This document shows, piece after piece, positions 8,902-32,003 of a stretch of DNA of 33,525 nucleotides (positions are counted from its first letter, which is position 1; the number at the start of each line of letters is the position of its first letter). This DNA is from a virus (Duplodnaviria; Heunggongvirae; Uroviricota; Caudoviricetes), in IMG/VR virus record IMGVR_UViG_2703718822_000009; one strand, written 5' to 3'. Both the position numbers and the translations under genes were made by a program. Below the pieces are notes generated by a model. The model did no database searches and had not been told where the DNA came from. It saw nothing but the letters and a program-made list of their open reading frames with translations.

Positions 8902-9165
8902 TCAGGAACGCCGCGACAGTAGTTCAAGCGCATACCGGCGATCTTCCGGGCACATGGCATCAACAAGAAACTTCACCATATTGCGACCGGAGCGGGCGCC
9001 GGGGCTGAGGGTATGGGAAAAGGTCATCGTACAGACGAAGGTATGCCCGCATTCGACATCACTGCATGCACAGTACAGATCCGCAAGTTCAGGGGTTTTC
9101 CAGTCTGTCTTCCGGATGACAGCAGGTGCGCCACAGTCAGGACACCGGGCTTTAAAAATCCGCAT
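8902..9165 (-). CDS. ogr: Late transcription activator, Ogr/Delta zinc-finger family
   Basis: ORF 8902..9255(-) trimmed to the ATG at 9165 with GGAGG 5 nt upstream (MRIFKARCPDCG...). C-x2-C ... C-x4-C-x3-F cysteine pattern matches P2 Ogr as recalled. Confidence 0.85.
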   Translation of the reverse strand: MRIFKARCPDCGAPAVIRKTDWKTPELADLYCACSDVECGHTFVCTMTFSHTLSPGARSGRNMVKFLVDAMCPEDRRYALELLSRRS

Positions 9166-10255: not shown

Positions 10256-12078
10256 GCGGCTTTCCCGAAGGCCCATGTGGACGGGCGTTCATAGTCATAA
10301 TCTACAGGCTCATTAATCACGGCGTGCGAAATGGCAAAAAACACATCCGCATGCCCCGTAACATCCGACCGTTCCGCCACGAACGTCAGCGCGTTACCGC
10401 TTTTTGTGGTGGTGCGGCGTATGGACATGAACGACGCGGGGATCTCCGTGCGTTCACGGCTGGCCTCATCAATGGCGTCTTTCGCCCACTCGATACGCTT
10501 ATGGGCCACCACGTCTATCATTTTCATCACCAGGCGGTTTTTGCTCTCCACGCTGTAAAGAATGGCGTTAGCCTCACGTGGCGCAAAGCGACTGACGATA
10601 TCAAACACCCCTTTCCCGATACCGGTGATATCTATGCCGATATAGGTAATGTTAAAACGCTGCATCAGTTCGCGGATCTGATCGGCCTGCCAGGTGAAGT
10701 TAAATCCCTGCCACTGCCAGACGGCGAGCACACGGAACCGCTCGCCCTCATGGACAGGCGGAGCCACAATTACAAACGTGGAATTATCCCCGGACCTTGA
10801 CGGGTCAAAGCCCGCCCACACCTCACGATTGCCGAACGGACGTGCCGCCGTGGGATCGTAGTCACCCCACGTCTCCATCTCCACCTCGCACCTGACCAGT
10901 TCGGAGAACTTAAATACCGCATCCTTGCTGTCAACAAACTCGCAGCCGTACAGCATCGCGTAAGTGGTCGGATTGTAGCGGTTCCTGATACGTTCAATAT
11001 CAACCCGAGCAGACAGGCCACCCGCCACCGCCTCTTCCAGCCGGATAATGTAGCGCCAGATCCCGTCAGGGCATTCACAGCCCACACGCATCGCGCTTTC
11101 TTTCGGAAACTCAACAGCACGACGCGCCGGGTCATCCCCGCGCCAGTCGTCACCATTCCAGACCAGATAAGCCTGGTGGGTTTTGGCGCTGGGTGTGGAA
11201 AAATACGTCGTGCGGTATTTGTCGTGGGTCGCCATTGCCGAGGCCACTTCATGCAGTCGCGTGAATTTTGGGATCCAGAACACCTCATCGCCGTAAAGGT
11301 GGCCGTTAAATCCCTGGGCGGTACTGGCATTGGTGGACAGGAAACGCAGCATTGCACCATTGCTCAGACGGATATGCTTACCCGTGAGCGTGATCCCGAA
11401 CTGCAGGGCGAAGTTAATAATATATTCACGGAAGATTTCCGCCTGTACCCGTGACGCAGAAAAGAAAATCTGGTTATCACCGGTCACCACCGCATCTTCG
11501 AACGCCTCCCATGCAAAATACCAGGTCATGCCGATCTGGCGGCTCTTGAGGATGAAACGGCGCTCACGGTGCCGGTTCTCGCGGCAGTGCAGCTGGTAGG
11601 CATAAAGATTTTTACGCGCCCATTCATCCAGCATTTCAGCAGTCAGTCCGGAAACGTCGTTTTTCCGGTAGCGCCGCTTTTTCCCTTCTCCCCCGCCGCA
11701 GGTCCCCGCAGCCACGCCGTCCTCATGCCCTGCCGGACGCAGGGCGGCAATTTCCGCCATCCTTTCAGCGTGTTTGTTTTTCTGGGCGATGATCTTCACG
11801 TGCTGCGCGATAAGTTCACGCAGTTCGGCAAGTTCACACTCTGTCTTGCCCTCCCGTCCGGTCAGCACATCAATACGCCGGGCGATCACGTCCTCAACGG
11901 ATTCAGCGGGCAGCAGGGTAGCCCACTGCCCCACATCACACCAGTGGTAAACCGTGCGCGGCGGAATACCGAGTTCCGCCGCAATATCGCGGGGGTGCCA
12001 CCGCTTCAGGTAAAGCGATCGCGCCGCCTCTTTGATTTCGTCAGAATATTTAGCCATGCGCCCATTATGGCGGCGCAT
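10252..12078 (-). CDS. Terminase large (ATPase) subunit, P2 gpP-like
   Basis: 608-aa ORF upstream of the portal and divergent from the scaffold/capsid genes. Start at 12078 or 12057 unresolved. Confidence 0.88.
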   Translation of the reverse strand: MRRHNGRMAKYSDEIKEAARSLYLKRWHPRDIAAELGIPPRTVYHWCDVGQWATLLPAESVEDVIARRIDVLTGREGKTECELAELRELIAQHVKIIAQKNKHAERMAEIAALRPAGHEDGVAAGTCGGGEGKKRRYRKNDVSGLTAEMLDEWARKNLYAYQLHCRENRHRERRFILKSRQIGMTWYFAWEAFEDAVVTGDNQIFFSASRVQAEIFREYIINFALQFGITLTGKHIRLSNGAMLRFLSTNASTAQGFNGHLYGDEVFWIPKFTRLHEVASAMATHDKYRTTYFSTPSAKTHQAYLVWNGDDWRGDDPARRAVEFPKESAMRVGCECPDGIWRYIIRLEEAVAGGLSARVDIERIRNRYNPTTYAMLYGCEFVDSKDAVFKFSELVRCEVEMETWGDYDPTAARPFGNREVWAGFDPSRSGDNSTFVIVAPPVHEGERFRVLAVWQWQGFNFTWQADQIRELMQRFNITYIGIDITGIGKGVFDIVSRFAPREANAILYSVESKNRLVMKMIDVVAHKRIEWAKDAIDEASRERTEIPASFMSIRRTTTKSGNALTFVAERSDVTGHADVFFAISHAVINEPVDYDYERPSTWAFGKAA

Positions 12079-12223
12079 CCGGCCCGCATTCAGGCAGAAA
12101 ATTTCGGCTGTGTTCGGCTATTCCGTGTTATCCGAATGCAACCGAATTAATCCAGTAGCCCCCTGCCGTAAAAATCCCGACACTCACCGGAGTTCTTCAG
12201 ATTTTCACGTAAAAGAGGCCACG

Positions 12224-13272
12224 ATGCCGCAGCCAACGTTGATGACCGACTGGACATGCATCGCCACATCAGGGCCGACCGCTGACGGTCGCGAAATTGA
12301 TCCGCAGTGGCTGATTGATGCCGCTGAAACCTATTCCCGCAACACCTACACGGCGATGCTGTGGCCCTGCCATGAGAACGACACCAGTTACCGCCAGTAC
12401 ACCTTCAATCTGGGCGAAGTGGACGCGCTGAAAGTGGAAACCCGCGAGGACGGTAAAACCCGTCTTTACGCGCGACTGGTCCCTAATCAGTACCTGATTG
12501 AAGCCAACAGGCTGGGGCAAAAACTCTTCACATCAGCCGAATTAATACCGAACTTTGCCAAAAGCGGACGCGACTATCTCATGGGTGTGGCGGTGNNGAT
12601 ATCCCCGCCAGTCTGGGGACGGAAAAAATCCGCTTCACCCTGAACAACGAGGAATACACGGCACAGCGGGCGAACTGCCAGACGTTCACGCTGGGCAGCC
12701 TGTCACCGGACACCACCCCTGCCCCCCGTAAACCTGAGTCATTCCTGAAACGCCTGTTCAGCGCAGGACAGACCGACAACACCGATACCAGTAAGCCTGA
12801 TACAGGCGAGGACGCAAAAATGGACGAAATTAAAGCACTGCTTGAAAAGCTGATCACCCTGGTGGAAGGCGGCAGCGCCGCTGCCGCTGGCGAGGGCACA
12901 GCAGACACACCGGAAGAAGCAAAAGCCGAAGTCGCGGAAATCGCCGCCGAAATCGCCGATGCCGCCGCAGAGGTGGCAGAGCTGGCAGAAGAGGTGGAAG
13001 CCGCCCCGGAAGATGAGGTTAAGGCTGAAGCCTTCAGCGCCGCGAAAGCGAAGCTGGAAGACGCGATTAAAGCGTTCAGTGCCATCACACCGGAAAAAGG
13101 CGAACGTTACCGCCGCTTTGCCGCCCGTCGCCGGGACGACACCGACAAAGAAGAAATCAAAGCCATTGCCGAAAAACTTAACGACCTGACCACGAAGCTG
13201 TCAGCCACCGGCATCACGCCACGCCCGGCTGGCACACCGGCAGAAAGCGAAAAACCGTTTGACTTTGTTTAA
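12224..13272 (+). CDS. Capsid scaffolding protein, P2 gpO-like (apparent frameshift at an NN assembly ambiguity)
   Basis: ORF 12032..12643 from the ATG at 12224 (AAGAGG RBS) matches the gpO N-terminal region; reading continues across NN (12596-12597) in another frame as DIPASLGTEKIRF... into ORF 12820..13272 (acidic Ala/Glu-rich scaffold C-terminus). Confidence 0.8.
12596..12597. other. Ambiguous bases (NN), assembly uncertainty
   Basis: Two N characters inside the scaffold gene. Confidence 0.95.
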
Positions 13273-13283
13273 GGATACGCAAC

Positions 13284-14312
13284 ATGCAACTGAACCAGAA
13301 AACCGAATCACTGCTTCGTAAGTACGCTGCCGGGCTGGGTGCGGCAAACGGGGTTGACGACGTCACACGCTATTTTGCGCTGTCTGACCCGAAGGAGACC
13401 GCGCTGCGTGACGCCATCATGCACTCCGACGAGTTTTTATCAAAACTGCCGAACGTGCTGGATGTTGAACAGGTGACAGGCCAGGTGGTTACCACCGGCG
13501 TTCCGGGCCTCCATACCGGACGTAAAAAAAATGCCCGCTTCACCCTTCCGCTGGGTGTTACCGGGAATGAATACAAGCTGGCTGAAACCGATTCCGGTGC
13601 CCACCTCCTGTACACCACACTGGTCACCTGGGCAAACGCAGGCGGTGAAAACGAGTTCTTTAACCGCATTCAGAATTTTGTTAACAGACAGATCGCGCTG
13701 GATATCCTGCGCATTGCCTTTAACGGTACCAGCGTGGCCGAAGATACCGACCCGGTAACCAACAAAAACGGCGAGGACGTCAACACCGGCTGGCATGCCA
13801 TCGTCAAAGGCCGCAGCGCAAAACAGATCGTGGAGGCTGGCCCGACGCTGGGCAAGGGTGGCGACTTTATCGGGCTGGATGCAGCCGTGGCAGACCTCGT
13901 GCACACCCTCATTGATGAGTCGTATCGCGGTCATCCGGATCTGGTGGTACTGGTTGCGCCCGATCTTGTGGCACAGGACAAGGTGACGCTGCTTAACGCC
14001 ATCGACGCCCCCACGGAAAAAGTGGCCGCGCAGCTTATCGGTCGCCAGATCGCCGGGCTGACAGCATACACCCCGCCGTTCATGCCGGAAGGACGCCTGA
14101 TTGTCACCACGCTGGCAAACCTTCACATCTACACGCAGCGCGGCACCCGTCAGCGCCGTGCGGAGTGGAACGACGATCGCAAGCGTTTTGAAAACAACTA
14201 TCTGCGCATGGAAGGTTACGCCGTGGAGCACGACGAAATTTACGCGGCCTACGACAAGCTGACCATCAAGGGCGCAGAAGCGGCAGAAGAGCCCGCACCT
14301 GGCGGCGCATAA
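13284..14312 (+). CDS. Major capsid protein, P2 gpN-like
   Basis: 342-aa ORF with AAGGA RBS, between the scaffold and small terminase genes. Confidence 0.88.
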   Translation: MQLNQKTESLLRKYAAGLGAANGVDDVTRYFALSDPKETALRDAIMHSDEFLSKLPNVLDVEQVTGQVVTTGVPGLHTGRKKNARFTLPLGVTGNEYKLAETDSGAHLLYTTLVTWANAGGENEFFNRIQNFVNRQIALDILRIAFNGTSVAEDTDPVTNKNGEDVNTGWHAIVKGRSAKQIVEAGPTLGKGGDFIGLDAAVADLVHTLIDESYRGHPDLVVLVAPDLVAQDKVTLLNAIDAPTEKVAAQLIGRQIAGLTAYTPPFMPEGRLIVTTLANLHIYTQRGTRQRRAEWNDDRKRFENNYLRMEGYAVEHDEIYAAYDKLTIKGAEAAEEPAPGGA

Positions 14313-14329
14313 GCACAGAGGGCGGCGCA

Positions 14330-15028
14330 ATGACACCCTGCCAGCGACACCGGGCGAAAATCCGCACACAGGAGGCACTCGAACGCCGGGAAGCGCTGAC
14401 GGCCTCCCCGGTCAGCTTCCACCTGTTACGCGCGGAGCTTGATCGCGATGTGGCACGGCTGCGCAGTCTTCCTGTCCGCGAAGAGCGGCTGGCGTTCAAG
14501 CGCGACATTCTCCTGCCGCGCTGGCTGCCCGTCGCGGAGCGCTATATCGCTGACGGAAAGCGCCACGCCTGCCCGGTACTGGTGTACTGCATCATCTGGC
14601 TGTTCGACACGGGCGACCTGAGTCGCGCCCTTGACTGGGCAGACATTGCCATCAGTGAAGGCCAGGCCACGCCGGACAACTTCCGCAGCACCCTGCCCGC
14701 CTTCGTGGCCGACACGGTGTTGCAGTGGGCCACCGACAACAGCGAGGCCGGACACAGCATAGAGCCGTATTTTTCGCGCACCTTCAGGAACGTCACCACC
14801 ACGTGGCGGCTGCATGAGGAAATCCGCGCGAAGTGGTTCAGATTTGCCGGGCTGTATCTTCTGCGCGACGAGGCAGGCAAACCGAGAGCCACCGCGATTA
14901 ATGATACTGCCGTACTGGAAAAGGCAGACGCATACCTGGCACAGGCGGCAGCACTGAGCCGTACCGCTGGCGTAAAAAGTATCAGGGCGCGCATCAGGGC
15001 ACGCATCAGCGCCCTTAATGCAGCGTAA
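14330..15028 (+). CDS. Terminase small/endonuclease subunit, P2 gpM-like
   Basis: 232-aa ORF following the capsid gene in the conserved O-N-M-L order. Confidence 0.8.
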   Translation: MTPCQRHRAKIRTQEALERREALTASPVSFHLLRAELDRDVARLRSLPVREERLAFKRDILLPRWLPVAERYIADGKRHACPVLVYCIIWLFDTGDLSRALDWADIAISEGQATPDNFRSTLPAFVADTVLQWATDNSEAGHSIEPYFSRTFRNVTTTWRLHEEIRAKWFRFAGLYLLRDEAGKPRATAINDTAVLEKADAYLAQAAALSRTAGVKSIRARIRARISALNAA

Positions 15029-15135
15029 ACGACTACCCGCAGGGCCGGGCGGGCGCGGGAGGAGGCATCAGTGACGGAAACTGTATGGCCGTGGAATCCC
15101 GGACAGCCCGCCTTTTTATTCATATGAGGCACGTC

Positions 15136-15609
15136 ATGAGCGAACCGAGCTTCAGCGTCAGCGGTAAACCGCTGAAATCCACACCGCAGACGGTGACAAA
15201 CGGCGAGCCGTTCTGGCCGGACCTTGATCTGGCTGAGCTTCAGGGGTCACGCACGCTTCCGGCTGATTTACCCGACGACACGGCGGCCATGGCGCTGCTT
15301 GCCGCAGTGGCCGAGGTAAACACCACGCTGGCGCCGGTTGTGGCGCACTGGAAGGCGCAGGGGCATGAACGCGCCGCAGACGTACCGGGGGCCAGGCTGG
15401 GCGATGAAACCCAGCTGGTCGCACAGTACAAAAAGGCCGTTTATGCCCGTGCCAAGGCCGATCTTATGGGCGAGTTCGCCACCATTGGTCGCCGTGAAAC
15501 CTATCCGGGGCAGGAAAGCGAGGACACACGCGCCACCTTACTGGCTGAAGCCTCGCTGGTCATGCGTAACATGCTGGGGCACAGACGCGCGGGAGTGCAC
15601 ATTATATGA
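15136..15609 (+). CDS. Head completion protein, P2 gpL-like
   Basis: ORF 15085..15609 trimmed to the ATG at 15136 with GAGG RBS. Confidence 0.75.
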   Translation: MSEPSFSVSGKPLKSTPQTVTNGEPFWPDLDLAELQGSRTLPADLPDDTAAMALLAAVAEVNTTLAPVVAHWKAQGHERAADVPGARLGDETQLVAQYKKAVYARAKADLMGEFATIGRRETYPGQESEDTRATLLAEASLVMRNMLGHRRAGVHII

Positions 15610-16079
15610 ACCAGCTGGAAAGCCTGACCGCCTTCATTACCGAAAATCTGCCGCCTGACGCCATGCAGTTCTTCATGAGCAGTCAGGAAGACGCGCAGCT
15701 TATCCGCAGTCAGAAGGCGCTGGGTAACGACCAGATCCGCATGGGCGTGATGACGTACACCGGCGTGATTGCATGGGATAACTTCCCGTTCCGCAAATAC
15801 TCACCGGGGCTGGTTTACGCGCTGGTCATGGCCTGGCTGGAAGAGCACGCGGACCCGCTGAGGGAGGAATTCCGCCCGGAGGATGTGAACGTCGACCCGC
15901 AGTTTAACGACGAGGACTCGTGCCTTCTCGATATCACGGTGGGACTGGCTGACCCGCTGATCATCCGGGTGCAGGAAGAGGGTCCCGTTCCGTACAGGGG
16001 GAAACGCTGGACACTGGTTAACCCTGAAATCTGGACGGCGGAAACCATGGATCTGTTTGTCAGCAGGAGCCGCGAATGA
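15606..16079 (+). CDS. Tail completion protein, P2 gpR-like
   Basis: ATGA-coupled to gpL. The segment ALVMAWLEEHADPL...DVNVDPQFNDEDSCLLDI resembles P2 gpR as recalled. Confidence 0.6.
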   Translation: MNQLESLTAFITENLPPDAMQFFMSSQEDAQLIRSQKALGNDQIRMGVMTYTGVIAWDNFPFRKYSPGLVYALVMAWLEEHADPLREEFRPEDVNVDPQFNDEDSCLLDITVGLADPLIIRVQEEGPVPYRGKRWTLVNPEIWTAETMDLFVSRSRE

Positions 16080-16786
16080 TAAGCGGCCAGCTGAACCCGC
16101 AGCAGCTGGCAGAAGCGCAGGCGATGCTTCAGTCGCTGGATCTGCCACCAAAAAAACGCCGTCGCCTGTTATGGCGTATTGCCCGGCACGGCATTATCGC
16201 CGCTGCCAGACGCCATCAGCGCGATCAGGCCGCACCGGACGGTACAGCATGGGCACCCAGGAAACGCGGTAAGGGGAAAATGTTCAGAAAGCTGCCGCGT
16301 CTTCTGGCGGTCCGTGAGATGCCCGGACAGGATGCCGTAAAGGTTTATTTCCGTAACGGCAATCACACCAGTGGCAGGAGCCGCATCAGTGCCGGTGCCG
16401 TGGGCTGGGTTCACCACAACGGCGCAGAAATCCGGGTCAGTGCTGACAGCTTCAGCGGTCAGGACCAGAGCGGACAGACCGCCACCCGCCGACAGGCAAA
16501 ACGACTGCGGGAGCTGGGCTTTAAGGTACGTCAGAAGGGGCGCTGGCGGAAAGCATCCATGAAATACCTGTTAACGCTTTCGCGGGCGCAGGCCGGGTTG
16601 CTGATCACCGTTATGGAAGATCAGATTATCGCCGGACCACGTCAGCAGAAGGCCCGGACATGGACCATTACCCTTCCGTCGCGCGTCTTTCTGGGGGTAA
16701 CAAACGAAGAATTTTCACACATCCTGGCACGCCAGATGAACGCAATGGGCTACGGCCTGGACGTTGACGCACAGGATATCAGATAA
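16076..16786 (+). CDS. Virion morphogenesis / tail completion protein, gpS-like
   Basis: ATGA-coupled to the R-like gene; basic, Arg/Lys-rich 236-aa protein. Confidence 0.5.
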   Translation: MISGQLNPQQLAEAQAMLQSLDLPPKKRRRLLWRIARHGIIAAARRHQRDQAAPDGTAWAPRKRGKGKMFRKLPRLLAVREMPGQDAVKVYFRNGNHTSGRSRISAGAVGWVHHNGAEIRVSADSFSGQDQSGQTATRRQAKRLRELGFKVRQKGRWRKASMKYLLTLSRAQAGLLITVMEDQIIAGPRQQKARTWTITLPSRVFLGVTNEEFSHILARQMNAMGYGLDVDAQDIR

Positions 16787-16797
16787 GGAGTCACACC

Positions 16798-17943
16798 GTG
16801 AGCTGGCCGAATGTAACCGTAAGCCATCAGAACCGTTTCAACGGTGCCACCCGTGAAGTGGAGCGCACGCTGCTTTTTGTGGGCTATGGCAAAAAGAACA
16901 CAGGTAACACCCTTTCCGTCTCCCCTGAGACCGACCTGGACGACGTGCTGGGACCGGATGAAAGCCTGCTTAAATCCACGCTTACCGCCGCAATCGCCAA
17001 CGGTGGCCAGAACTGGTTTGCCTATGTTCACGTTCTGTCTGAACCCAAACCCCCGGCACCGGAGGGCGGCGACGCTAACGCCGCATGGGTGGACGCGGTG
17101 AAAAAAGCGCAGACCATTGCTTCTGCCGAGGGCGTGGTGATTGCCATTGACATCACGGCCAAAGATGCCGTTAACCGCGCCACCGAAACCCGCGCCCTGC
17201 TTCAGTCCGCTTATGGCCGTTTTGTCTGGTTCATGCTGTGCGTGGCCGGACCGGGCAAGGATGAGGCATGGGCGGCATACGTCACCCGCATCAGTGCCAT
17301 ACAGGACGGTGTGGCAGCACCTGGCGTGATGGTGGTTCCCCGCTTATGGGGAAATGAGCCCGGCGTACTGGCGGGCCGTCTCTGTAATCCTTCCGTCACC
17401 GTTGCGGACAGTCCGGCACGTGTGGCAACCGGTGCCCTGGTGGCGATGGGTAACGATGAGATCCCGCAGGACGGCAAGAAACAGCCCCTTGAGCTGGCCA
17501 CGCTGCGCTCGCTGGAAGGCAAACGCTTCAGCGTGCCCATGTGGTATCACGATTTCGACGGGCTCTACTGGTCAGACGGACGCACCCTTGATGTGGAGGG
17601 GGGAGATTACCAGGTCATCGAAAACGTGCGCGTGGTGGATAAAGTCTCCCGCCGTGTACGTCTGCGCGCCATTGCCCGCCTTGCGGATCGCGCACTCAAC
17701 AGCACACCGGGCAGCATTGCCGCCAGCCAGACATATTTCAGCCGCACGCTGCGTGAAATGGCGCTCGCCACGGAGATTAACGGCGTACCGTTCCCCGGCG
17801 AGGTTAAACCGCCACAGGACGGGGATATCACCATCGTCTGGACCAGCAGTACACACGTGCAGATTTACATTGTGGTACGCCCCTACGAGAGCGCAAAAGC
17901 CATTGGCGTAAGTATTGAACTCGACACAGCACTGGAGATCTGA
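16798..17943 (+). CDS. Putative tail sheath-like protein
   Basis: GTG start with TAAGGAG RBS; 381 aa, followed by a ~150-aa ORF; size and order mimic sheath/tube. No clear similarity to P2 FI. Confidence 0.45.
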   Translation: MSWPNVTVSHQNRFNGATREVERTLLFVGYGKKNTGNTLSVSPETDLDDVLGPDESLLKSTLTAAIANGGQNWFAYVHVLSEPKPPAPEGGDANAAWVDAVKKAQTIASAEGVVIAIDITAKDAVNRATETRALLQSAYGRFVWFMLCVAGPGKDEAWAAYVTRISAIQDGVAAPGVMVVPRLWGNEPGVLAGRLCNPSVTVADSPARVATGALVAMGNDEIPQDGKKQPLELATLRSLEGKRFSVPMWYHDFDGLYWSDGRTLDVEGGDYQVIENVRVVDKVSRRVRLRAIARLADRALNSTPGSIAASQTYFSRTLREMALATEINGVPFPGEVKPPQDGDITIVWTSSTHVQIYIVVRPYESAKAIGVSIELDTALEI

Positions 17944-17944
17944 C

Positions 17945-18406
17945 ATGGCCGGAAATGAACGTATCAGCGGCGGCGCGTTTGATATCAACTACGACGGGAT
18001 CATGATCCACGTGGAAAGCGCCACCGTCACCATCACCGACAACAGCGCCGTGGCACAGACGCGCGGCGTGCCGAACGGCTACACCCGTGGTTCCGTTTCT
18101 GCCGATGTGGAGGTGGAAGTCGACGCGCAGAACTTTAAAAAGTTTGGTGCCGTGGCCCGCTCTGCGGGGTCGTGGCGTGCCATTCCTGAAAAGGATTTTC
18201 TCTTTTATGCCAACAACGGCAGCGAGGAGGAAAAAATCGAGGTATTCGGCTGCGTCCCCATGTTGTCGGACGTGGTGAACATCAGCGCAGGTGAAGCCGG
18301 AAAGACCACGAAAAAAATCAAGTTCATGGTCACAAGCCCGGACTTTATCAGCATTGACGGCGTGCCCTACCTGTCAGCCCGTGACACCCGCGATCTGAAG
18401 GGGTGA
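17945..18406 (+). CDS. Putative tail tube-like protein
   Basis: ORF 17915..18406 trimmed to the ATG at 17945, which overlaps the upstream stop; about 153 aa. Confidence 0.4.
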   Translation: MAGNERISGGAFDINYDGIMIHVESATVTITDNSAVAQTRGVPNGYTRGSVSADVEVEVDAQNFKKFGAVARSAGSWRAIPEKDFLFYANNGSEEEKIEVFGCVPMLSDVVNISAGEAGKTTKKIKFMVTSPDFISIDGVPYLSARDTRDLKG

Positions 18407-18410
18407 TGCC

Positions 18411-18716
18411 ATGCCGGACGGTCAGACTTCACTCCTGGCAAAACTGATTATCATCGGTGCTGCCATCGGGCTGGGGCGTCTCATGGTGAGCCGCGATCGC
18501 ATCACAGCCCGTCTGCTTATCGGGCGAATGATTATGGGCTCTGCCGTGGCACCGGTTGCCGCCATTCCGCTGTTTAAATTTCCGGACATGCCGGAACTGG
18601 TTGTGGTCGGTCTGGCGTGCGCGCTGGGCATTATGGGCAGCGCCTTTATTGAAGAATGCTTTTGCCGTCTGGCAGACCGCTACCTGAAGCAGAAGGAACG
18701 CAGAAATGACCCATAA
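18411..18716 (+). CDS. Putative holin (three predicted TM segments)
   Basis: 101-aa protein with three hydrophobic stretches and a charged C-terminus (KQKERRNDP); heads a cluster containing the endolysin and spanins. Confidence 0.55.
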   Translation: MPDGQTSLLAKLIIIGAAIGLGRLMVSRDRITARLLIGRMIMGSAVAPVAAIPLFKFPDMPELVVVGLACALGIMGSAFIEECFCRLADRYLKQKERRNDP

Positions 18717-19458
18717 GCCTTACATTTCTCCTTTCCTGAGCCTGTATCACGCGCAGGCGCATGACGTTCTGCGAATGCTGCCGGAAAACAGTGTGGACGC
18801 GCTCATCACAGACCCGCCATACAGTTCAGGTGCCACACACAAGGCGGGGCGGACATGCCAGGGCAGCCACGCCAAATACATCAACGATGAAGATCTTCAC
18901 CGCTTTGAAGGCTTCGAAGGCGAGAACATGGACGCCCGTTCATGGGAATACTGGACGCATCTGTGGATGACACAGGCATGGCGCACGGTACGACCCGGTG
19001 GTTACGCCCTGGTCTTCACCGACTGGCGGCAGTTGCCCGCGCTGACGGACGCATTCCAGGCCGCCGGTTTTACCTGGCGGGGGATCGTGGCATGGAACAA
19101 GGGACGGGCCTCAAGAACACCGCATACCGGTTATTTTCGTCACCAGTGCGAATATGTGGTCTGGGGCAGTAAAGGCGCGCTGGGCAAATCCCCTTCCGGG
19201 CCGTTCGACGGCTGCATCACGCACCACACACGCCCACAGGAGAAACAGCACCCGACAGGTAAACCGGAATCGTTGATGGATGAGCTTGTGCGCGTGTGTG
19301 AACCCGGAGGGCTGATCCTCGATCCGTTTATGGGGTCCGGCACCACGGGCGTGGCCGCCCTTCGCCGGGGCTGCCGTTTTACGGGTATTGAACTGAACGC
19401 CCACTATTTCAGCGTGGCACAGGCGCGTCTTACGGGGACGGAACAGAGGAGTGACTGA
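18706..19458 (+). CDS. DNA methyltransferase (amino-MTase, N6-adenine or N4-cytosine), orphan
   Basis: Motif IV ITDPPY precedes motif I LDPFMGSGTTGVAA (beta-class order). Start overlaps the holin 3' end; stop overlaps the endolysin start. No adjacent restriction endonuclease. Confidence 0.85.
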   Translation: MTHKPYISPFLSLYHAQAHDVLRMLPENSVDALITDPPYSSGATHKAGRTCQGSHAKYINDEDLHRFEGFEGENMDARSWEYWTHLWMTQAWRTVRPGGYALVFTDWRQLPALTDAFQAAGFTWRGIVAWNKGRASRTPHTGYFRHQCEYVVWGSKGALGKSPSGPFDGCITHHTRPQEKQHPTGKPESLMDELVRVCEPGGLILDPFMGSGTTGVAALRRGCRFTGIELNAHYFSVAQARLTGTEQRSD

Positions 19459-19796
19459 TGAAACTGAGCGAAAAACAACAACTGTTTGCCGTCATGATTG
19501 CCGATCTCATCCACTGGGCACAGGAGCACGGCTATCGCCTGACCTTCGGCGAGGCATACCGCACGCCGGAGCAGGCCGCACTGAATGCGAAAAGCGGAAA
19601 AGGCATTCGCAACAGCCTTCACACGCTGCGCCTCGCGGTGGACTTCAACCTGTTCATTAACGGCGAATACCAGGCCGATACCGACGCCTACAGGCCGCTG
19701 GGGGAATACTGGGAATCCATCGGCGGCACATGGGGCGGACGCTTCAGCCGGGCAGACGGCAATCATTTCAGCCTTGAGCACAACGGGGTGAAATGA
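19458..19796 (+). CDS. Endolysin, peptidase M15-like
   Basis: 112 aa with SLHTLRLAVDF and GNHFSLEH, matching the zinc-binding H...D...H pattern of M15 peptidases; GAGGAG RBS. Confidence 0.78.
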   Translation: MKLSEKQQLFAVMIADLIHWAQEHGYRLTFGEAYRTPEQAALNAKSGKGIRNSLHTLRLAVDFNLFINGEYQADTDAYRPLGEYWESIGGTWGGRFSRADGNHFSLEHNGVK

Positions 19797-20179
19797 TGAA
19801 ACAGGTGGCGGGCTGCCTGGTGATCCTCTTTGCCGCCATGTGGGCGGGCTGGCTGGCCCATGACTGGCATGACGCCAGGGTGGCGCTTGCCGAACAGGAA
19901 GCCATGGAAGCCACGCGACGTGCGGTAACAGAAGCCGGGCAGCAGTCCGCCCGCATACTGGAAAAACGGCTGGAGGCGTTAAAGGGCAATGAAATTCACA
20001 CTGAACGCGTTATTCACACGGAAACCGTCCGCCCGGTATTCCGCAATGTGTGCGCTACTGATGATTACGTCCGGCTGTTCAACGCCCGTGCTGAAGCCGC
20101 TGAGCGTACCCTGGCAGGAAAACCAGCTGACGGAATGCCCGAAGACACTGCCGAGACTGGCAGGCCCGACGGGCGCTGA
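19793..20179 (+). CDS. i-spanin (Rz-like)
   Basis: N-terminal TM segment (VAGCLVILFAAMWAGWLA) then a charged helical periplasmic region; ATGA-coupled to the endolysin. Confidence 0.6.
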   Translation: MMKQVAGCLVILFAAMWAGWLAHDWHDARVALAEQEAMEATRRAVTEAGQQSARILEKRLEALKGNEIHTERVIHTETVRPVFRNVCATDDYVRLFNARAEAAERTLAGKPADGMPEDTAETGRPDGR

Positions 20180-20282
20180 TTTTGATGCGGCACTGCGAAC
20201 CCTCACGAGCCGCTACACCGAATGCGCCGCCAGGCATAACAGCCTGGTGGAAACCATACGAAACACGGAGAAACTGCAATGA
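19989..20282 (+). CDS. o-spanin (Rz1-like lipoprotein), overlapping the i-spanin
   Basis: Alternative frame overlapping the 3' half of the i-spanin; lipobox-like LLMITSG|C; start at 19989 or 20046 unresolved. Confidence 0.55.
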   Translation: MKFTLNALFTRKPSARYSAMCALLMITSGCSTPVLKPLSVPWQENQLTECPKTLPRLAGPTGADFDAALRTLTSRYTECAARHNSLVETIRNTEKLQ

Positions 20283-20554
20283 CCACGAAGAACACCGGCA
20301 CCATCATCCTGTCCGTTGCGGGCGTAACCCTGAGCTTTGAACCGAACAAAACGGCATTTAACAACCTCATCAACGAAATCACGATGACCAACAAGGTGGC
20401 GCCGATGAGCACCTATCTTAACCGCATCGTGACACCTGCCAGCCGCGACGCACTGGCTGACCTGATTGCGCGTTATCCGGGCTGTGAGATGCAGATCGTC
20501 GAGAAGATTAACGAGGTTTACTCCCCGAAACTGGAGATTGAGTTAAAAAACTGA
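20279..20554 (+). CDS. Tail assembly chaperone, short form (gpE / lambda G analogue)
   Basis: 91-aa ORF immediately upstream of the tape measure gene; ends ...ELKN with the heptamer A AAA AAC just before the stop. Confidence 0.6.
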   Translation: MTTKNTGTIILSVAGVTLSFEPNKTAFNNLINEITMTNKVAPMSTYLNRIVTPASRDALADLIARYPGCEMQIVEKINEVYSPKLEIELKN

Positions 20555-20742
20555 CCGCGCGGGTCGAAAGCATCCGCCGCAATCCCCTTGAGCAGTATCT
20601 GGCATTGCGGCGTCACTACCTCCCCGGAGAGCCGGACGACGAAGAGAGCATCGCCCGTGCCATCTGGCTGGATGAATATTTTGCCCGTACCCGCGCCAAC
20701 AAGACCGCTGAAGGTATAGCGATCGCATTTAACGGAAGGTGA
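20279..20742 (+). CDS. Tail assembly chaperone, frameshift-extended long form (gpE'/GT analogue)
   Basis: Zero frame to 20551, then -1 frame 20551..20742 (LTARVESIRRNPLEQYLALRRHYLPGEPDDEESIARAIWLDEYFARTRANKTAEGIAIAFNGR). Confidence 0.5.
20545..20551 (+). promoter_or_regulatory. Putative -1 programmed frameshift slippery heptamer (A AAA AAC)
   Basis: X XXY YYZ heptamer three nt before the chaperone stop. The -1 frame is open for 64 codons to a stop at 20740-20742, directly abutting the tape measure ATG at 20744. Confidence 0.55.
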
Positions 20743-20743
20743 C

Positions 20744-22930
20744 ATGGCCAGCCAGCTGGATTTCATTATCAATCTGACAGACCAGCTTACCCGCCCGCTG
20801 CGGCAGGTTCAGGAATCCGTGACGGGATTCGCCGAACGCTCGCAAGGCGCGTTCGCGCGTATCGGTGTGGGTGTGGCCGGACTGTGGGGCGTGGCCGAAG
20901 GTATCCGCGCCGCGATGGATCCGGCGTGGGAGATGCAGAAGGCGCTGGGCGAGCTTGAGGCCAAAGGCGTCGGGGCGCAGGCGCTGACCGCCCTCACCAC
21001 GCAGGCCATGAAACTGGGGACCGCATTCGGTCAGTCTTCCACGGAGATCATCCGTTCCGCATGGCATATTCGCGGCGCACTGGACGGACTGAGCGACGGG
21101 GATTTACCCCGTGTGACGGCAGCAACCAGCACCCTGGCCGTGGCTGCCCGCGTCAGCAGCGAAGAGGCGAGCGGCTACCTTGCCGCCATGGGTGCCCGTT
21201 TCCGCAGTGAGTTTTCTGCCATGGGTGCCGTGGGGTTTGCTGAAGATCTGGCAGGTAAAACCGCGTGGATGGTTCAGCAGTTCGGCGTGGAAATGAGCAC
21301 CATGCAGGAGCTTATTGAGGGCACCAAAAACGCGGGCGCGGATTTTGGCGTCAGCATGGCAGAGCAGTTTGCCATACTGGGCACCCTGTCACGGACCATG
21401 GGCACCGAGGCATCGGGCATCTATGAGGAATTCCTGCGCAGTGCCCCCGCTGCCGCACAAAAAATGGGGATGAGTTTTGTCGATGCCACCGGGAAGATTT
21501 TACCCATGGGTGACATCCTCGACCGTCTGCAGGCGAGGTTCGGCAGGAACATTGAGGGTAACGTGGCGGCACAACAGGCGCTGGATGACGCCTTCGGCAG
21601 TGGCGCGGACGTGATTAAAAAACTCTGGGGACAGCAGGAAATGCTTAACCGGAGCATATCAGCGCTGGGGCGTAATGACGGCATGAAGCGTGCCACGGAA
21701 ATGGCGGAAGCCATGACCGACCCGTGGGACCGCCTTGTGGCCTCCTTCTACAACATCCGGGCCGCCATCGGTAACGCCCTCTACCCCATTCTCGCACCAC
21801 TGGCTGGCCGTTTTGCCGATATCGGCGCGACGTTCGTGCGCTGGCTGAACATGTTCCCGAACATCGCCCGCTGGCTGGGTTACATCACGCTGACCATGCT
21901 GGCGCTGGGCGCAGCCGGTGCGGTCACGAACATCGTGCTGGGTGTGTTCAGCTTCATCATGGAAGGCCATAAGGCCATCATAAAGGGCGCCAGGGCAGCC
22001 TGGAGTCTGTACACGCTTGCACTCACAAAAGTACGCAGTGCCATCATTGCCACCAGTCTTGCCGCGCGTCTGGCGGGCGTGTCGTTTCTGACCATGAGCG
22101 CCCCGGTCCTCCTGGTTGCCGCCGCCATCGCTGCTCTGGTGGTGGTGGCCATTAAGTTCTGGCAGCCCATCAAAGCCTTTATTCGCGGCTTTATTGATGG
22201 TTTTACCAGCGCACTGGACGCCATGAGCCCGGTGACTGCCGCGTTCGGTGACATTGCCCGGGCGCTGGCCCCGGTATGGCAGGGCATAAAAACACTGTTC
22301 AGTGCCTTCTCCGATCTGTTTGCACCGGTACAGCTGACCACGGGACAGATGAACAGCGTCACCCGTGCCGGGGAAACATGCGGTCGCGTGGTGGCCGCAG
22401 CGGTAAGCATGATATCCCCCGCGCTGGAGGTGGTTATCAGCGTGATCAGAACCCTGATCGACATCTTCGCCATCGTCATCAGAGGGTGGCAGGACGTGGT
22501 GGCTGCATTTGACCCGACCGCCCCGGTCGAATCCTTCCGGAAAATGGCGGGGATCATCGGTAACGTCTTCGGGGACTTATGGAACGTCATTAAAAACTCG
22601 TTTAACCGGACGTGGAACTGGCTTGCGGAAAAGCTGAACAAAATCCCCGGTATCAGTATCGACATGAAGCCCACGGAGCAGGTGAACACCATGACGCGGG
22701 GCGCAACAGGCAGCACCGTACCTCCGCAGATTGCAGAAACCGCCGTCCCGGCACTGGCAGGCAACCGCATCAGCGCAGAGCTGCCACCCGGAGGCATACG
22801 CAACCAGATACGCACGGACACCTCAACCCGTATCGACAACAGCCGGACGTTCGGCAATCTGACAATCAACACGCAGAACCCGATGACGCCGGGGCAACTG
22901 GATGAATGGACGGAGCTTTACGCGGGATGA
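20744..22930 (+). CDS. Tail tape measure protein
   Basis: 728 aa; Ala/Gly-rich helical N-terminal region and hydrophobic central segments; follows the frameshifting chaperone. Confidence 0.85.
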   Translation: MASQLDFIINLTDQLTRPLRQVQESVTGFAERSQGAFARIGVGVAGLWGVAEGIRAAMDPAWEMQKALGELEAKGVGAQALTALTTQAMKLGTAFGQSSTEIIRSAWHIRGALDGLSDGDLPRVTAATSTLAVAARVSSEEASGYLAAMGARFRSEFSAMGAVGFAEDLAGKTAWMVQQFGVEMSTMQELIEGTKNAGADFGVSMAEQFAILGTLSRTMGTEASGIYEEFLRSAPAAAQKMGMSFVDATGKILPMGDILDRLQARFGRNIEGNVAAQQALDDAFGSGADVIKKLWGQQEMLNRSISALGRNDGMKRATEMAEAMTDPWDRLVASFYNIRAAIGNALYPILAPLAGRFADIGATFVRWLNMFPNIARWLGYITLTMLALGAAGAVTNIVLGVFSFIMEGHKAIIKGARAAWSLYTLALTKVRSAIIATSLAARLAGVSFLTMSAPVLLVAAAIAALVVVAIKFWQPIKAFIRGFIDGFTSALDAMSPVTAAFGDIARALAPVWQGIKTLFSAFSDLFAPVQLTTGQMNSVTRAGETCGRVVAAAVSMISPALEVVISVIRTLIDIFAIVIRGWQDVVAAFDPTAPVESFRKMAGIIGNVFGDLWNVIKNSFNRTWNWLAEKLNKIPGISIDMKPTEQVNTMTRGATGSTVPPQIAETAVPALAGNRISAELPPGGIRNQIRTDTSTRIDNSRTFGNLTINTQNPMTPGQLDEWTELYAG

Positions 22931-23277
22931 ACACGCCATCGCTTTACATCGACCTGCTTATCACTGACGGCAGTTTTACGCTGAACAGCGGAAACGAGCC
23001 ACAGCGATGTGATAACCGGGTCAGCATCGGCCAGGACGTGGTGCACAGCATTATCGAAAGCGGGATCGCCGCCCTGCTTATCGGCGAACGCAGCCCGACG
23101 CTGCGCAGCGACATCATTACCCGGCTTATCCTCCTGGTTGAGGATGATGAACGGCTGGTTCCGGGGACGGTGTTCATTAACGAAGAGGCACCGGGCAGGC
23201 TGCATGTGACGGCAGAGACACAGGATTTTGGACGCATAAACACCAGGGTGAACTATGAAAGGGAAACCGGACGTTGA
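22927..23277 (+). CDS. Putative baseplate protein (gpW/gp25-like by size and position)
   Basis: ORF 22906..23277 trimmed to the ATG at 22927, which overlaps the tape measure stop; about 116 aa preceding the J-like gene. Confidence 0.45.
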   Translation: MNTPSLYIDLLITDGSFTLNSGNEPQRCDNRVSIGQDVVHSIIESGIAALLIGERSPTLRSDIITRLILLVEDDERLVPGTVFINEEAPGRLHVTAETQDFGRINTRVNYERETGR

Positions 23278-24439
23278 TTTTAATCAGGTATTCCGTGAAA
23301 GCGGTATGCCGGAAACAGAAGAAGAGATCGCCACCCTCTTTCATGAGGATGTACAGAAAACCGGACTCATCACCAACACCTCGCCCATGAGTCCCTTCTG
23401 GCGGCTCATTCTGACCATTGTCATACGACCCGTTCAGTGGCTGCGTGATGCGCTGGTTGACGTTGTACTGCCCGGTATGTTTGTCGCCACGGCTGACCGG
23501 TCACTTCTTCTGCTTCATGCGCACGACGTCAACATCACCCCAAAACCGGCCAGTAAGGCCAGTGGCGTGATCTGGTTTGCCAAAACCAGGGCAAATGATG
23601 ATGTTCTCATCCCCGAAGGGACCATCGTCCAGACCGCCAGAATTAACGGCGTGATATACAGCATGGCCGTCACGGAGGAAACGCTTATCAGCAGCGGTAA
23701 AAGCGGCGCATCCGTTCCCGTGGAAGCCACCACCGAAGGCAGCGGGCACAACCTCGCGCCGGGGTACTTCCGTATCCTTCCCGTTGCCATTCCCGGCATT
23801 GCATCCGTGGTGAACCGGGAAGACTGGCTGACCGTACCGGGTGCCGATGAGGAAAGCGACGACGAACTGCGCGACAGAATACGCAACCAGTTTAACCTCG
23901 TGAGCAGTTACCACACGGATGCCGTCTACCGGGGACTTATCGCCAGCGTGGCAGGCCTGAGCATCGACCGGATCTACTTTCAGCACGACGCCCCGAGAGG
24001 ACCGGGAACGGCCAACGCCTACCTGTTACTGGACAGCGGCGAGGCCTCTGCCCCTTTCATTGAAGCAGTCAACCGCTACATCAACGAAGAGGGGCACCAC
24101 GGACACGGGGATGATTTGCAGTGTTTCGCCATGCCGGAGACGCGTCACCGTCTGGACGTCACCGCATACATCAGAAGTTCCACCACCCTGCCACCGGACG
24201 GCGCGGAAGGGCTGAAACAGGATATCGGCGACCTGATACGCTGCGCTTTCCGGGAGAACGCCCGCTTTAATGTGAAAAAAGTCTGGCCCTATTCGCGCTT
24301 TTCGTTTTCCACGCTGGGCAAGGAAATTCATCAGACCTTCCCGGTGGTGGCTTCGGTTCAGTTTTCACTGGAAGACATCATCAGCGATCTGGCCGTGCCA
24401 CGGCTCGAATCCCTGACAGTGGAGGTGGTCATTGAATGA
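23255..24439 (+). CDS. Baseplate protein, gpJ-like
   Basis: 394 aa, positioned between the W-like and I-like genes. Confidence 0.6.
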   Translation: MKGKPDVDFNQVFRESGMPETEEEIATLFHEDVQKTGLITNTSPMSPFWRLILTIVIRPVQWLRDALVDVVLPGMFVATADRSLLLLHAHDVNITPKPASKASGVIWFAKTRANDDVLIPEGTIVQTARINGVIYSMAVTEETLISSGKSGASVPVEATTEGSGHNLAPGYFRILPVAIPGIASVVNREDWLTVPGADEESDDELRDRIRNQFNLVSSYHTDAVYRGLIASVAGLSIDRIYFQHDAPRGPGTANAYLLLDSGEASAPFIEAVNRYINEEGHHGHGDDLQCFAMPETRHRLDVTAYIRSSTTLPPDGAEGLKQDIGDLIRCAFRENARFNVKKVWPYSRFSFSTLGKEIHQTFPVVASVQFSLEDIISDLAVPRLESLTVEVVIE

Positions 24440-31280: not shown

Positions 31281-31440
31281 GTAAATTACGCGCGGGTGCC
31301 TTTCGGCTGACGGCTGGAAGGATTACCTGAAGGCCGGATGAGGAAAGGCCCCGAGTCAAACATTTGTTTAACCCGAGGCCCTAACCCATCTACCTCGCAA
31401 GTGGAAGGTTAGCGCCTCCCTGTAAAAGGAGTCAAGCGCT

Positions 31441-31581
31441 ATGCCGCAAAAAACGATCATAGTGAGCATTTTATGCATAACTATTTTGATGATTGTCTGG
31501 ATGATACACAAGTCACCGTGTGAGTTCAGGCTTAACATCATGTGGTCAGAATTTGCGGCGTTCTTGCAGTGTAAACAGTAA
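31441..31581 (+). CDS. Hok/Gef-family type I toxin (46 aa)
   Basis: Hand translation MPQKTIIVSILCITILMIVWMIHKSPCEFRLNIMWSEFAAFLQCKQ: TM helix then K-S-x-C-E-x-R and E-x-A-A-F, as in Hok/Gef proteins; AAGGAG RBS. Confidence 0.8.
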   Translation: MPQKTIIVSILCITILMIVWMIHKSPCEFRLNIMWSEFAAFLQCKQ

Positions 31582-31671
31582 GAAACCGCAGCGGGGGTGA
31601 AAGCCCCCGCTATCCGGTTGCCGGGTTCGGTCGATATGGCACCCTTTCTCCGTTGGATTACAGACGTATTT

Positions 31672-31697
31672 GCCCGCGACATGCGGGCCTTTTTGTT
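31672..31697 (+). terminator. Intrinsic terminator of hok-like locus 1
   Basis: gcccgc / gcgggc stem with a 5-nt loop, followed by CTTTTTGTT. Confidence 0.6.
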
Positions 31698-31900: not shown

Positions 31901-32003
31901 CGCCCCGACACAGGACAGAGTAAGCCTGTGCGAAAGAATATCACCAGTGCGATAGCGTTGTCTGCTTCAACGCCAGGCATTGCACACACAAAGGGAAATC
32001 AGT

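Follow-up and report, generated by a model that had tools for sequence, protein, structure and literature searches.

A predicted DNA methyltransferase gene without a restriction partner in the lysis cassette of a P2-like Escherichia coli prophage

The lysis cassette of a P2-like Escherichia coli prophage (Peduoviridae; HP1-type tail, Irrigatiovirus-like), integrated between dmsA and serS, contains an ORF for a DNA amino-methyltransferase (MTase) between its holin and endolysin genes. The product is predicted from its sequence and structural model to be a catalytically competent, stand-alone enzyme of the beta class. We consider it likely that this intact, N6-adenine-leaning enzyme was spliced into the lysis cassette, is made only late in infection, modifies progeny DNA so as to protect it from restriction, and is not expressed in the lysogen. 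The MTase is an ordinary phage enzyme of the anti-restriction type in a less common, recurrent position and does not represent a new kind of system. The features of the window, i.e., the whole stretch of 33,525 nucleotides that was analyzed, are listed in Table 1.

Table 1. Positions of the MTase gene, its motifs, and associated features in the window
Feature	Position	Strand	Basis and remarks
Ogr/Delta-type zinc-finger late-gene activator	8902–9165	−	C-x2-C-x22-C-x4-C motif; Bongo orthologue annotated as Ogr/Delta-like
Holin, 101 aa	18411–18716	+	PF04550 Phage_holin_3_2, E = 1.2e-19; phrog_175, E = 6e-31
Replaced or inserted segment, ~805 bp	18653–19457	+	blastn against Salmonella phage SW3
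Shine–Dalgarno-like AAGGAA	18693–18698	+	Sequence; 7 nt ahead of the MTase ATG, within the holin gene
MTase, orphan, beta-class, probably N6-adenine, 250 aa	18706–19458	+	PF01555, family-invariant residues, AlphaFold model
Conserved MTase core	18790–19410	+	Sole part with DNA-level homology to Com-linked and Mu-like relatives
Catalytic motif IV, DPPY (residues 36–39)	18811–18822	+	Sequence; invariant in 29 homologues
AdoMet-binding motif I, FMGSGTT (residues 208–214)	19327–19347	+	D206, P207, F208, G210, and S211 invariant
Shine–Dalgarno-like GAGGAG for the endolysin	19446–19451	+	Sequence; within the MTase 3′ end
M15-family (M15_4) endolysin, 112 aa	19458–19796	+	PF13539, E = 3.7e-10
Rz/Rz1-type spanin pair	19793–20282 (19793–20179 and embedded 19989–20282)	+	phrog_1152, E = 4e-31

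Gene product and predicted chemistry

The MTase ORF starts with ATG and was matched by PF01555 (N6_N4_Mtase; 97.8 bits, above the gathering cut-off of 26.7), PHROG 67 (DNA methyltransferase; E = 7e-70), and PADLOC MTase_II (E = 7e-62). The DPPY motif is N-terminal and the FxGSG motif C-terminal, which is the motif order of the beta class. In an alignment with 29 homologues, all 50 family-invariant residues were retained, i.e., the catalytic residues have been kept and not lost. The stretch from motif VIII to motif X, where the target-recognition domain is expected, is very short (~24 residues). The AlphaFold model (pLDDT of 86) resembled CcrM (6pbd), M.BceJIV (8urk), M1.HpyAVI, and the rotifer N4-cytosine methyltransferase N4CMT (8s9m) in a Foldseek search, with a probability of 1.0 and query-normalised TM-scores of 0.69–0.74 for 8s9m, 6pbd, and 8urk. 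The model and the search predict the Rossmann-type methyltransferase fold of solved PF01555 members, and the substrate is presumably DNA.

The MTase is probably N6-adenine-specific, as judged from motif and profile comparisons. As a general rule for the beta class, SPPY or SPPF is typical of N4-cytosine enzymes, and DPPY points to N6-adenine. The best six matches of a PDB profile search were all N6-adenine enzymes (M1.HpyAVI, 1.6e-32; CcrM, 2.7e-28; M.BceJIV, 3e-27), and the top N4-cytosine enzyme had an E-value of 5.7e-19. N6-adenine enzymes were 8–13 orders of magnitude ahead of N4-cytosine ones in the sequence and profile searches. Moreover, the Bpm protein of Bordetella BPP-1, 51% identical to the MTase, carries an adenine methyltransferase label, which is an annotation only. 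An enzyme of the same timing that methylates N4-cytosine instead would fit with PF01555, which covers both chemistries, and with the Foldseek result, in which 8s9m ranked first by a small margin (E = 2.6e-18). The target base was also left open by the authors for KS5 gp20 and KL3 gp28, two Burkholderia phage methylases (PMC3091744). Given the DPPY motif and the profile results, we regard the N4-cytosine alternative as rather improbable.

Lysis cassette and late operon

The initial annotation had described a DPPY-type amino-methyltransferase that lies between a holin and an M15 endolysin and overlaps both, and the ORF, its motifs, the PF01555 match, and the matches of the neighbors agree with this description. 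The 3′ end of the holin gene overlaps the MTase start by 11 nt, and the MTase TGA (19456–19458) and the endolysin ATG (19458–19460) have 1 nt in common. RefSeq gives identical boundaries to the holin, MTase, and endolysin genes in 12 complete E. coli genomes. Strains that carry the prophage include 2013C-3033 (NZ_CP027323), 04-00955 (NZ_CP035498), and O22:H8 strain 154 (NZ_CP067426). The matches of the downstream spanin pair to phrog_456 and PF23793 (LysC) were weak.

A megablast search of 50,697 phage records with positions 16000–22000 of the window gave no match, and the relatives therefore had to be sought at the protein level. In the closest sequenced phages (Salmonella SW3, SW5, and SI7 and the ESSI-2 group), the holin gene directly overlaps the endolysin gene; therefore, the window holds a replacement or insertion of ~805 bp. 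In the blastn comparison with SW3, homology stops at 18652 and restarts exactly at the endolysin ATG. The segment carries the entire MTase gene, new ribosome-binding sites, and a new holin C-tail, comprising the last ~20 codons of the holin gene from ~18653. Consistently, the window holin is 69% identical to that of SW3 with a divergent C-tail, and the endolysins are 86% identical. Judged by these comparisons, the MTase gene is inserted between a holin and an endolysin gene that normally overlap.

Simple consensus scans of the + strand detected no sigma-70-like promoter or intrinsic terminator from the capsid genes to the tape-measure gene, although a weak internal promoter is possible. Because no promoter-like or terminator-like site was found between the MTase and its neighbors, the MTase is probably co-expressed from the late operon. 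The earlier proposal of late co-expression with the lysis and tail genes is thus sensible, as the MTase gene also lies on the same strand as its neighbors and shares overlapping start and stop codons with them. The predicted RNA fold at the MTase start (18640–18760) was no more stable than that of shuffled sequence (z = −1.3), and no regulatory hairpin is indicated there. The Ogr/Delta-type protein is presumed to be the switch for the MTase-containing operon. The Ogr-type dyad TGT-N12-ACA occurs 7 times in the window, against 7.5 expected by chance, and is therefore uninformative here. One candidate near-match to this dyad is located upstream of the scaffold gene.

The initial annotation reported no cognate restriction enzyme nearby, and this holds for the whole element: no restriction enzyme or nuclease is annotated anywhere in the prophage, the MTase has a holin and an endolysin as its neighbors, and ten otherwise unassigned ORFs had no nuclease or defence-system match in Pfam or PADLOC. 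The MTase accordingly lacks the adjacent cognate endonuclease that characterizes a Type II restriction–modification system. It also differs from the Com-controlled cassettes, in that the gene upstream is a holin gene and not com; the window contains no ORF for a Com-type zinc ribbon (CxxC-N8-30-CxxC), except for one antisense chance match. Since neither a promoter nor a terminator of its own was found in the consensus scans, the MTase gene is probably an operon-embedded accessory gene rather than a classical moron. It had been proposed to be an anti-restriction or epigenetic-marking moron; anti-restriction stands as its likely benefit, whereas the moron label is not favored, and neither is epigenetic action in the lysogen.

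Relatives and known systems

The MTase is part of a very large family of phage enzymes, and its close relatives in P2-like and Mu-like phages are mostly located inside late operons. The upstream neighbors of the relatives are Com, portal, DUF1804, gpL, tail-fibre assembly protein, holins, and endolysins, and the downstream neighbors are sheath, Mu F, TerL, and lysozyme. A few relatives occupy early positions, e.g., between Cro-like and primase genes. A holin or endolysin gene adjoins the MTase gene in ~11% of 88 sampled loci, and these cases fall into five unrelated lysis-gene contexts: holin–MTase–M15 endolysin in the window, holin–MTase–lysozyme in Salmonella Mu-like prophages, endolysin–MTase–spanin (locus L130), and two more that are holin-adjacent or endolysin-adjacent. 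Insertion in a lysis cassette, which had been called unusual, is thus a minority position but not a singular one. Literature searches yielded nothing directly relevant on the holin–methyltransferase–endolysin arrangement, the characterization of BPP-1 Bpm, or the methylomes of Mu-like prophage MTases.

The nearest relatives (65–73% identity) are preceded by Com. Such Com–MTase cassettes occur in P2-like elements of Escherichia phage Chuche (73% identity), Yersinia kristensenii (67%), Salmonella (65%), and Stenotrophomonas Smp131 (50%), i.e., in the same kind of phage, with hok/gef loci close by as in the window. The MTase gene of these cassettes lies either at the end of the prophage or behind the portal gene, and the preceding gene, for the Com zinc ribbon, overlaps its start. 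In contrast, Com is absent from the window, the gene ends are lineage-specific, and DNA homology is limited to the conserved core, which showed 67–73% identity to the Chuche, Yersinia, and Salmonella loci by blastn. The MTase of the Salmonella Mu-like prophage (P0011; L005–L008 and L112) has the same length of 250 aa, 60% identity, and a holin–MTase–endolysin arrangement with overlapping frames. However, the holin (PF04971) and endolysin (PF00959 lysozyme) of this prophage, which carries Mor/GemA, are unrelated to those of the window; therefore, the placement in the lysis cassette arose independently.

MTases nested in P2-like tail operons were already described in 2010 (Lynch et al., PMC3091744). 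KS5 gp20 (with Com gp21) and KL3 gp28 are ~250-aa PF01555 methylases that, like the window MTase, have no restriction partner; they are nested among P2-like late tail genes and were read as protection against host restriction (PMC3091744). The KS5 and KL3 genes lie between tail genes (fibre assembly and sheath; baseplate V and tail completion S), whereas the window MTase lies in the lysis cassette, and the Com gene adjacent in KS5 has no counterpart in the window. The likeness of the two methylases to the window MTase is by description; Burkholderia phages were also among its tblastn matches. M.EcoGII, a non-specific adenine MTase of an E. coli prophage, is likewise an orphan with the beta-class order of DPPY followed by FxGxG; it is silent in the lysogen, slows growth if over-expressed, and was proposed to defeat host restriction (PMC5778455). 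It is larger (349 aa) than the window MTase, with a larger central region, and this comparison is also by description.

Among solved structures, M1.HpyAVI (5hek/5hfj), CcrM (6pbd), and M.BceJIV (8urk) were the best sequence and profile matches; they share the fold and motifs with the window MTase at just 20–24% identity. Membership in the CcrM family (NF050803) was rejected (85.9 bits, far below the cut-off of 830), and the C-terminal domain of CcrM, with a chain of 366 aa, is absent from the window MTase, which ends ~40 residues past motif I. YhdJ was rejected as well (60 bits against the NCBIfam cut-off of 292), as were the plasmid leading-region MTases of PRK13699, which we take to be the M.EcoGIX type (105 bits against 244; ~29–30% identity to plasmid copies). 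Hia5, Hin1523, and Nma1821 of Mu-like prophages are orphan adenine MTases in the late mom position that provide broad DNA protection (PMC3299994). The Hia5 family belongs to the alpha class, with FxGxG first and DPPY last (PMC5778455). Because its motif order is the reverse, the window MTase is not a member of the Hia5/Hin1523 family.

Proposed role and alternative explanations

Here, we propose how the MTase may act in the phage life cycle. The gene would be transcribed solely within the long late operon, presumably turned on by the Ogr/Delta-type activator. Its translation would start from its own ribosome-binding site within the holin gene, and ribosomes may be passed from the MTase to the endolysin via the TGATG overlap. 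Because it would be transcribed only with the late operon, the MTase would be made in the final part of the lytic cycle, during phage DNA replication and packaging. Progeny genomes would thereby be methylated and resist restriction in the next host, and the MTase would be silent in the lysogen. In the literature, phage methylases of this type have been interpreted as a means of escaping restriction that is not expressed in lysogens (PMC3091744; PMC5778455). We infer both the late timing and the anti-restriction benefit. The operon position appears to substitute for the Com-dependent translational control that is used by the nearest relatives.

The recurrence of lysis-gene contexts permits another reading, in which the MTase is a low-specificity, potentially toxic enzyme, functionally like Mu Mom or M.EcoGII, that has to be restricted to the final minutes ahead of lysis, and its holin-linked position was selected as a substitute for Com. 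In Mu, Com keeps the toxic mom gene in check, and the coupling of the nearest relatives to Com is consistent with this reading, as are the five unrelated contexts in which homologues adjoin lysis genes and the very short region between motifs VIII and X. M1.HpyAVI, the best profile match, is the smallest beta-class enzyme and is said to have relaxed specificity, and the lysogen silence and growth cost of M.EcoGII also fit. However, small beta-class enzymes such as M.BceJIV recognize defined sites. Furthermore, relatives also occur at numerous late sites away from lysis genes and, in a few cases, at early sites, and the lysis position may thus merely reflect permissive gene junctions. We consider a low-specificity, toxic enzyme possible but doubtful. 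Equally tentative is the broader suggestion that the lysis-cassette placement is a selected timing device, a Com-free alternative to com–mom control with three or more independent origins, perhaps as many as five. If this were true, riding on the genes of the lysis clock would confine a host-toxic MTase that is frequent-cutting or of low specificity to the last minutes of infection.

Two further explanations were considered. Orphan MTases such as Dam and CcrM regulate genes, and the window MTase might accordingly act as an epigenetic regulator that is expressed in the lysogen and alters host or prophage expression, i.e., as a lysogenic-conversion moron. However, the consensus scans gave no promoter-like site upstream or terminator downstream of the MTase, and its start codon lies inside the holin gene and its stop overlaps the endolysin start, so that independent transcription would enter lethal lysis genes. 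The comparable prophage enzyme M.EcoGII is also silent in its own lysogen (PMC5778455). Since nothing suggests MTase expression outside the late operon, such a role is not favored, and we deem it highly improbable. Alternatively, the MTase could be a neutral or decaying passenger with no present benefit to the phage. The prophage is rare, being found in 12–13 of the 5,426 complete genomes of E. coli, and pairwise codon differences among the lineage alleles of the MTase were 62 synonymous to 70 non-synonymous, versus 10:0, 24:4, and 66:20 in neighboring genes. This proportionally higher number of amino acid changes indicates weaker constraint on the MTase, and its benefit is thus not proven. 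On the other hand, each of the 12 complete genomes that carry the prophage has an intact ORF, every invariant catalytic residue is retained, and the catalytic motifs are unaltered across five alleles (the window and four genomes). The GC content (0.60) and GC3 (0.67) of the MTase gene agree with those of the adjacent genes, and the junctions supply ribosome-binding sites, called working from the sequence, for both the MTase and the endolysin. A mere passenger is therefore very unlikely in our estimation.

A late, anti-restriction MTase of the kind proposed here adds little conceptually; it provides a clean natural comparison instead. Among P2-like phages, the same MTase core is Com-controlled at a prophage end and Com-free in a lysis cassette, and this pairing makes both the restriction to late expression and the specificity breadth of the family straightforward to test. 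Phage orphan MTases bear on horizontal gene transfer, on host range, and on how well phage therapy works, and the promiscuous M.EcoGII and Hia5 are now chromatin-footprinting tools.

The methyltransferase gene and its chemistry

A DPPY-type amino-methyltransferase (MTase) between the holin and the M15 endolysin, overlapping both, had been proposed in the initial annotation and was confirmed by the match to Pfam PF01555 (N6_N4_Mtase; 97.8 bits, with a gathering score of 26.7), the motifs, the ORF coordinates, and the RefSeq annotation, in which the boundaries of the MTase, holin, and endolysin genes are identical to those called here. PHROG 67 (DNA methyltransferase; E = 7e-70) and the PADLOC Type II methyltransferase model (E = 7e-62) also matched the ORF. 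The holin stop codon (TAA, 18714-18716) creates an 11-nt overlap with the start of the MTase ORF, and at the TGATG junction downstream, the endolysin ATG and the MTase TGA have one base in common.

Features of the MTase region and the putative late activator in the window
Feature	Position	Strand	Evidence or remark
Ogr/Delta-type activator	8902-9165	-	C-x2-C-x22-C-x4-C motif
Holin	18411-18716	+	PF04550, E = 1e-19; phrog_175
Ribosome-binding site AAGGAA	18693-18698	+	7 nt upstream of MTase ATG; on inserted segment
MTase ORF	18706-19458	+	ATG start, 250 aa
DPPY motif	18811-18822 (residues 36-39)	+	sequence
FMGSGTT motif	residues 208-214 of MTase	+	sequence
Ribosome-binding site GAGGAG	19446-19451	+	6 nt upstream of endolysin ATG; on inserted segment
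M15_4 peptidase endolysin	19458-19796	+	downstream of MTase
Rz/Rz1 spanin pair	19793-20282	+	downstream of endolysin

The motif order (DPPY, then FMGSGTT) is that of the beta-class. Aligned with 28 homologues (49-71% identity), the MTase keeps all 50 invariant columns, including DPPYSSG, DWRQLP, RHQ-E, GP, K-H, KP, and DPF-GS. Its AlphaFold model is confident (pLDDT 86, pTM 0.88) and superposes on a rotifer N4-cytosine enzyme (8s9m), CcrM (6pbd), M.BceJIV (8urk), and M1.HpyAVI (5hfj) at 20-24% identity; therefore, the fold alone does not separate N6-adenine from N4-cytosine chemistry. The motif rule used for base choice is DPPY versus SPPY/F. In the family profile search, the first six matches were N6-adenine enzymes (1.6e-32 to 3.8e-19), followed by the first N4-cytosine enzyme at 5.7e-19. 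The presence of DPPY rather than SPPY/F and this ranking favor N6-adenine chemistry. The stretch between motifs VIII and X, where the target-recognition domain would sit, has only ~24 residues.

Several candidate families were rejected. Scores against the curated CcrM, YhdJ, and PRK13699 families were far under the cut-offs, and plasmid leading-region methylases are only ~30% identical. The Hia5 group (PMC3299994) was excluded because it is alpha-class, as pointed out by Murray et al. (PMC5778455), in contrast to the beta-class motif order of the MTase.

Insertion into the lysis cassette of a P2-type prophage

The window is essentially one prophage, bounded on the left by an integrase and on the right by serS. 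Its regulation genes (Cox, replication endonuclease, and Ogr/Delta) and capsid module are P2-type, and its tail is HP1-type (DUF2586 sheath and HP1 Orf24 tube). The prophage between dmsA and serS of E. coli strain Bongo aligns with the window at 98-99%. The 1.6-kb lysis region is present in 13 of 5,426 complete E. coli genomes, in 12 of them at full length with at least 98% identity and with the MTase intact every time. A megablast search of phage records with window 16000-22000 gave no match.

Among sequenced phages, Salmonella SW3, SW5, and SI7 (Peduoviridae, Irrigatiovirus) are the closest, with a holin 69% and an endolysin 86% identical to those of the window; phages of the ESSI-2 group are close as well. 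All of these phages have directly overlapping holin and endolysin genes with nothing in between. DNA homology between SW3 and the window runs from the tail genes to 18652 (holin codon ~81) and restarts exactly at 19458, the endolysin ATG, so that ~805 bp (18653-19457) is foreign to the SW3-type backbone. By this comparison, the MTase is a precise insertion into the lysis cassette. The segment contains a new holin C-terminal tail (~20 residues) and the complete MTase, whose GC (0.60) and GC3 (0.67) are in line with those of the adjoining genes.

The cytoplasmic tail of the holin (18653-18716), swapped along with the insertion, reads ...CFCRLADRYLKQKERRNDP in the window versus ...GLKRCLDMYIKRWGSKRNETE in SW3. 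The SW3 holin has a double Met (MM) start, which the window holin lacks. Lysis timing can be set by holin tails and by dual starts, and may therefore not be the same in the window as in its relatives.

The block of genes that begins with the scaffold gene and ends with the tape-measure gene is tightly packed in one orientation, and promoter- and terminator-like counts over 11000-23500 (+ strand) were at chance level. The Ogr-type dyad TGT-N12-ACA was not enriched; a one-mismatch dyad (TGT-N12-ACC, 12126-12143) between the divergent terminase and scaffold genes, upstream of the latter, is a candidate late promoter of the MTase-containing operon. We naturally infer late co-transcription of the MTase with the lysis and tail genes. 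The initial annotation was largely right, as regards both the insertion and the orphan status, but its "moron" label does not seem to fit: consensus scans found no promoter- or terminator-like sites adjoining the MTase on the + strand, so the gene does not look like a classical moron. The reported lack of a nearby cognate restriction enzyme was borne out, as none is annotated anywhere in the prophage and neither Pfam nor PADLOC returned a nuclease or defence match for ten unassigned ORFs.

Two N bases at 12596-12597, where strain Bongo has ACG, make the capsid scaffold (GPO) ORF (12224-13269) look split into two frames; this probably reflects an artefact of assembly or masking rather than a pseudogene. 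A 557-aa ORF (28913-30586) that closes the tail module has a weak baseplate-V OB-domain match and no other family assignment; a Yersinia prophage (L009) has a syntenic ORF of similar length (565 aa) without a Pfam match, after HP1_ORF34. Hok/gef-type toxin loci are repeated at the prophage right end (~31281-31694 and 31977-32141 in the window; 33145-34483 in L001, a locus of the same lineage; three Hok/Gef CDS annotated in Bongo). A 117-N run (32148-32264) separates the last repeat from serS and masks any attR, small RNA, or toxin locus there.

Relatives, Com, and gene contexts

The MTase belongs to a very large family: of 8,000 scored candidates, 7,736 had E <= 0.001, and 1,586 phage records matched. 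Its nearest relatives, the MTases of Escherichia phage Chuche (73% identity), a Yersinia kristensenii prophage (67%), and a Salmonella prophage (65%), all lie at a P2-like prophage end beside hok/gef loci, with a gene for Com, a zinc-ribbon translational regulator, upstream and overlapping the MTase start. In the Yersinia and Chuche-type prophages, this Com-methyltransferase cassette adjoins the hok/gef-type locus. A Com-like "translational regulator" also accompanies the Smp131 MTase (50% identity). Unlike these Com-linked relatives, the window MTase has no Com gene, and no Com-type ORF was found in the window. DNA homology to them is restricted to 18790-19410; therefore, both ends of the MTase gene are specific to the window lineage.

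We surveyed 88 loci, a redundant sample, with an MTase at least 45% identical. The upstream genes were Com (18), invertase (7), DUF1804 (5), P2 portal (5), holin PF04971 (5), Mu portal (4), holin PF05105 (2), gpL (2), tail-fibre assembly protein (2), lysozyme (1), and GH25 endolysin (1); those downstream included tail sheath (10), Mu F (5), lysozyme (5), large terminase, and primase (four loci). In E. coli and Leminorella Mu-like prophages, the MTase lies between DUF1804 and the large terminase. These neighbours indicate that a late operon is the usual habitat of the family. Insertion inside a lysis cassette had been called unusual; the position is indeed less common (~11% of the redundantly sampled loci) but recurrent, in five unrelated contexts. 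Besides the window, these are holin-MTase-lysozyme in Salmonella Mu-like prophages (L005-L008 and L112; gene 4001-4753, 60% identity), endolysin-MTase-Rz spanin (L130), and MTases adjoining a PF05105 holin (L153/L156) or a GH25 endolysin (L143). The Salmonella Mu-like layout, with an unrelated holin (PF04971), a lysozyme-type endolysin, and 4-nt overlaps on either side of the MTase, is of independent origin.

Proposed role and selection

In P2-like Burkholderia phages, N4/N6 methylases are embedded in tail operons, one with a Com regulator, and were read as anti-restriction functions by Lynch et al. (PMC3091744). According to Murray et al. (PMC5778455), the beta-class prophage methyltransferase M.EcoGII remains silent in lysogens, slows growth on over-expression, and presumably serves to overcome restriction. 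A literature search of incomplete coverage found no published description of a methyltransferase flanked by holin and endolysin genes. The window MTase is a further example of a well-known kind of enzyme. Here, we propose that the probably N6-adenine MTase is likely synthesized late, driven by the operon, and likely marks progeny DNA ahead of packaging; its operon position appears to take the place of the Com control seen in the nearest relatives. One idea is that selection favoured a link with the lysis cassette because early synthesis of the enzyme would be harmful.

Codon differences were summed over pairs of five alleles of the prophage lineage (window, L001, L172, L173, and L174). Synonymous and non-synonymous differences numbered 62:70 in the MTase, versus 10:0 in the holin, 24:4 in the tube gene, and 66:20 in the endolysin. 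On these counts, constraint is weaker on the MTase than on the neighbouring genes, which is compatible with an accessory function. The MTase is intact in the five alleles, and its motifs are unchanged. A cluster of substitutions (A135C/S136A/T141P) among the alleles falls in the 132-146 segment, which holds six family-invariant residues.
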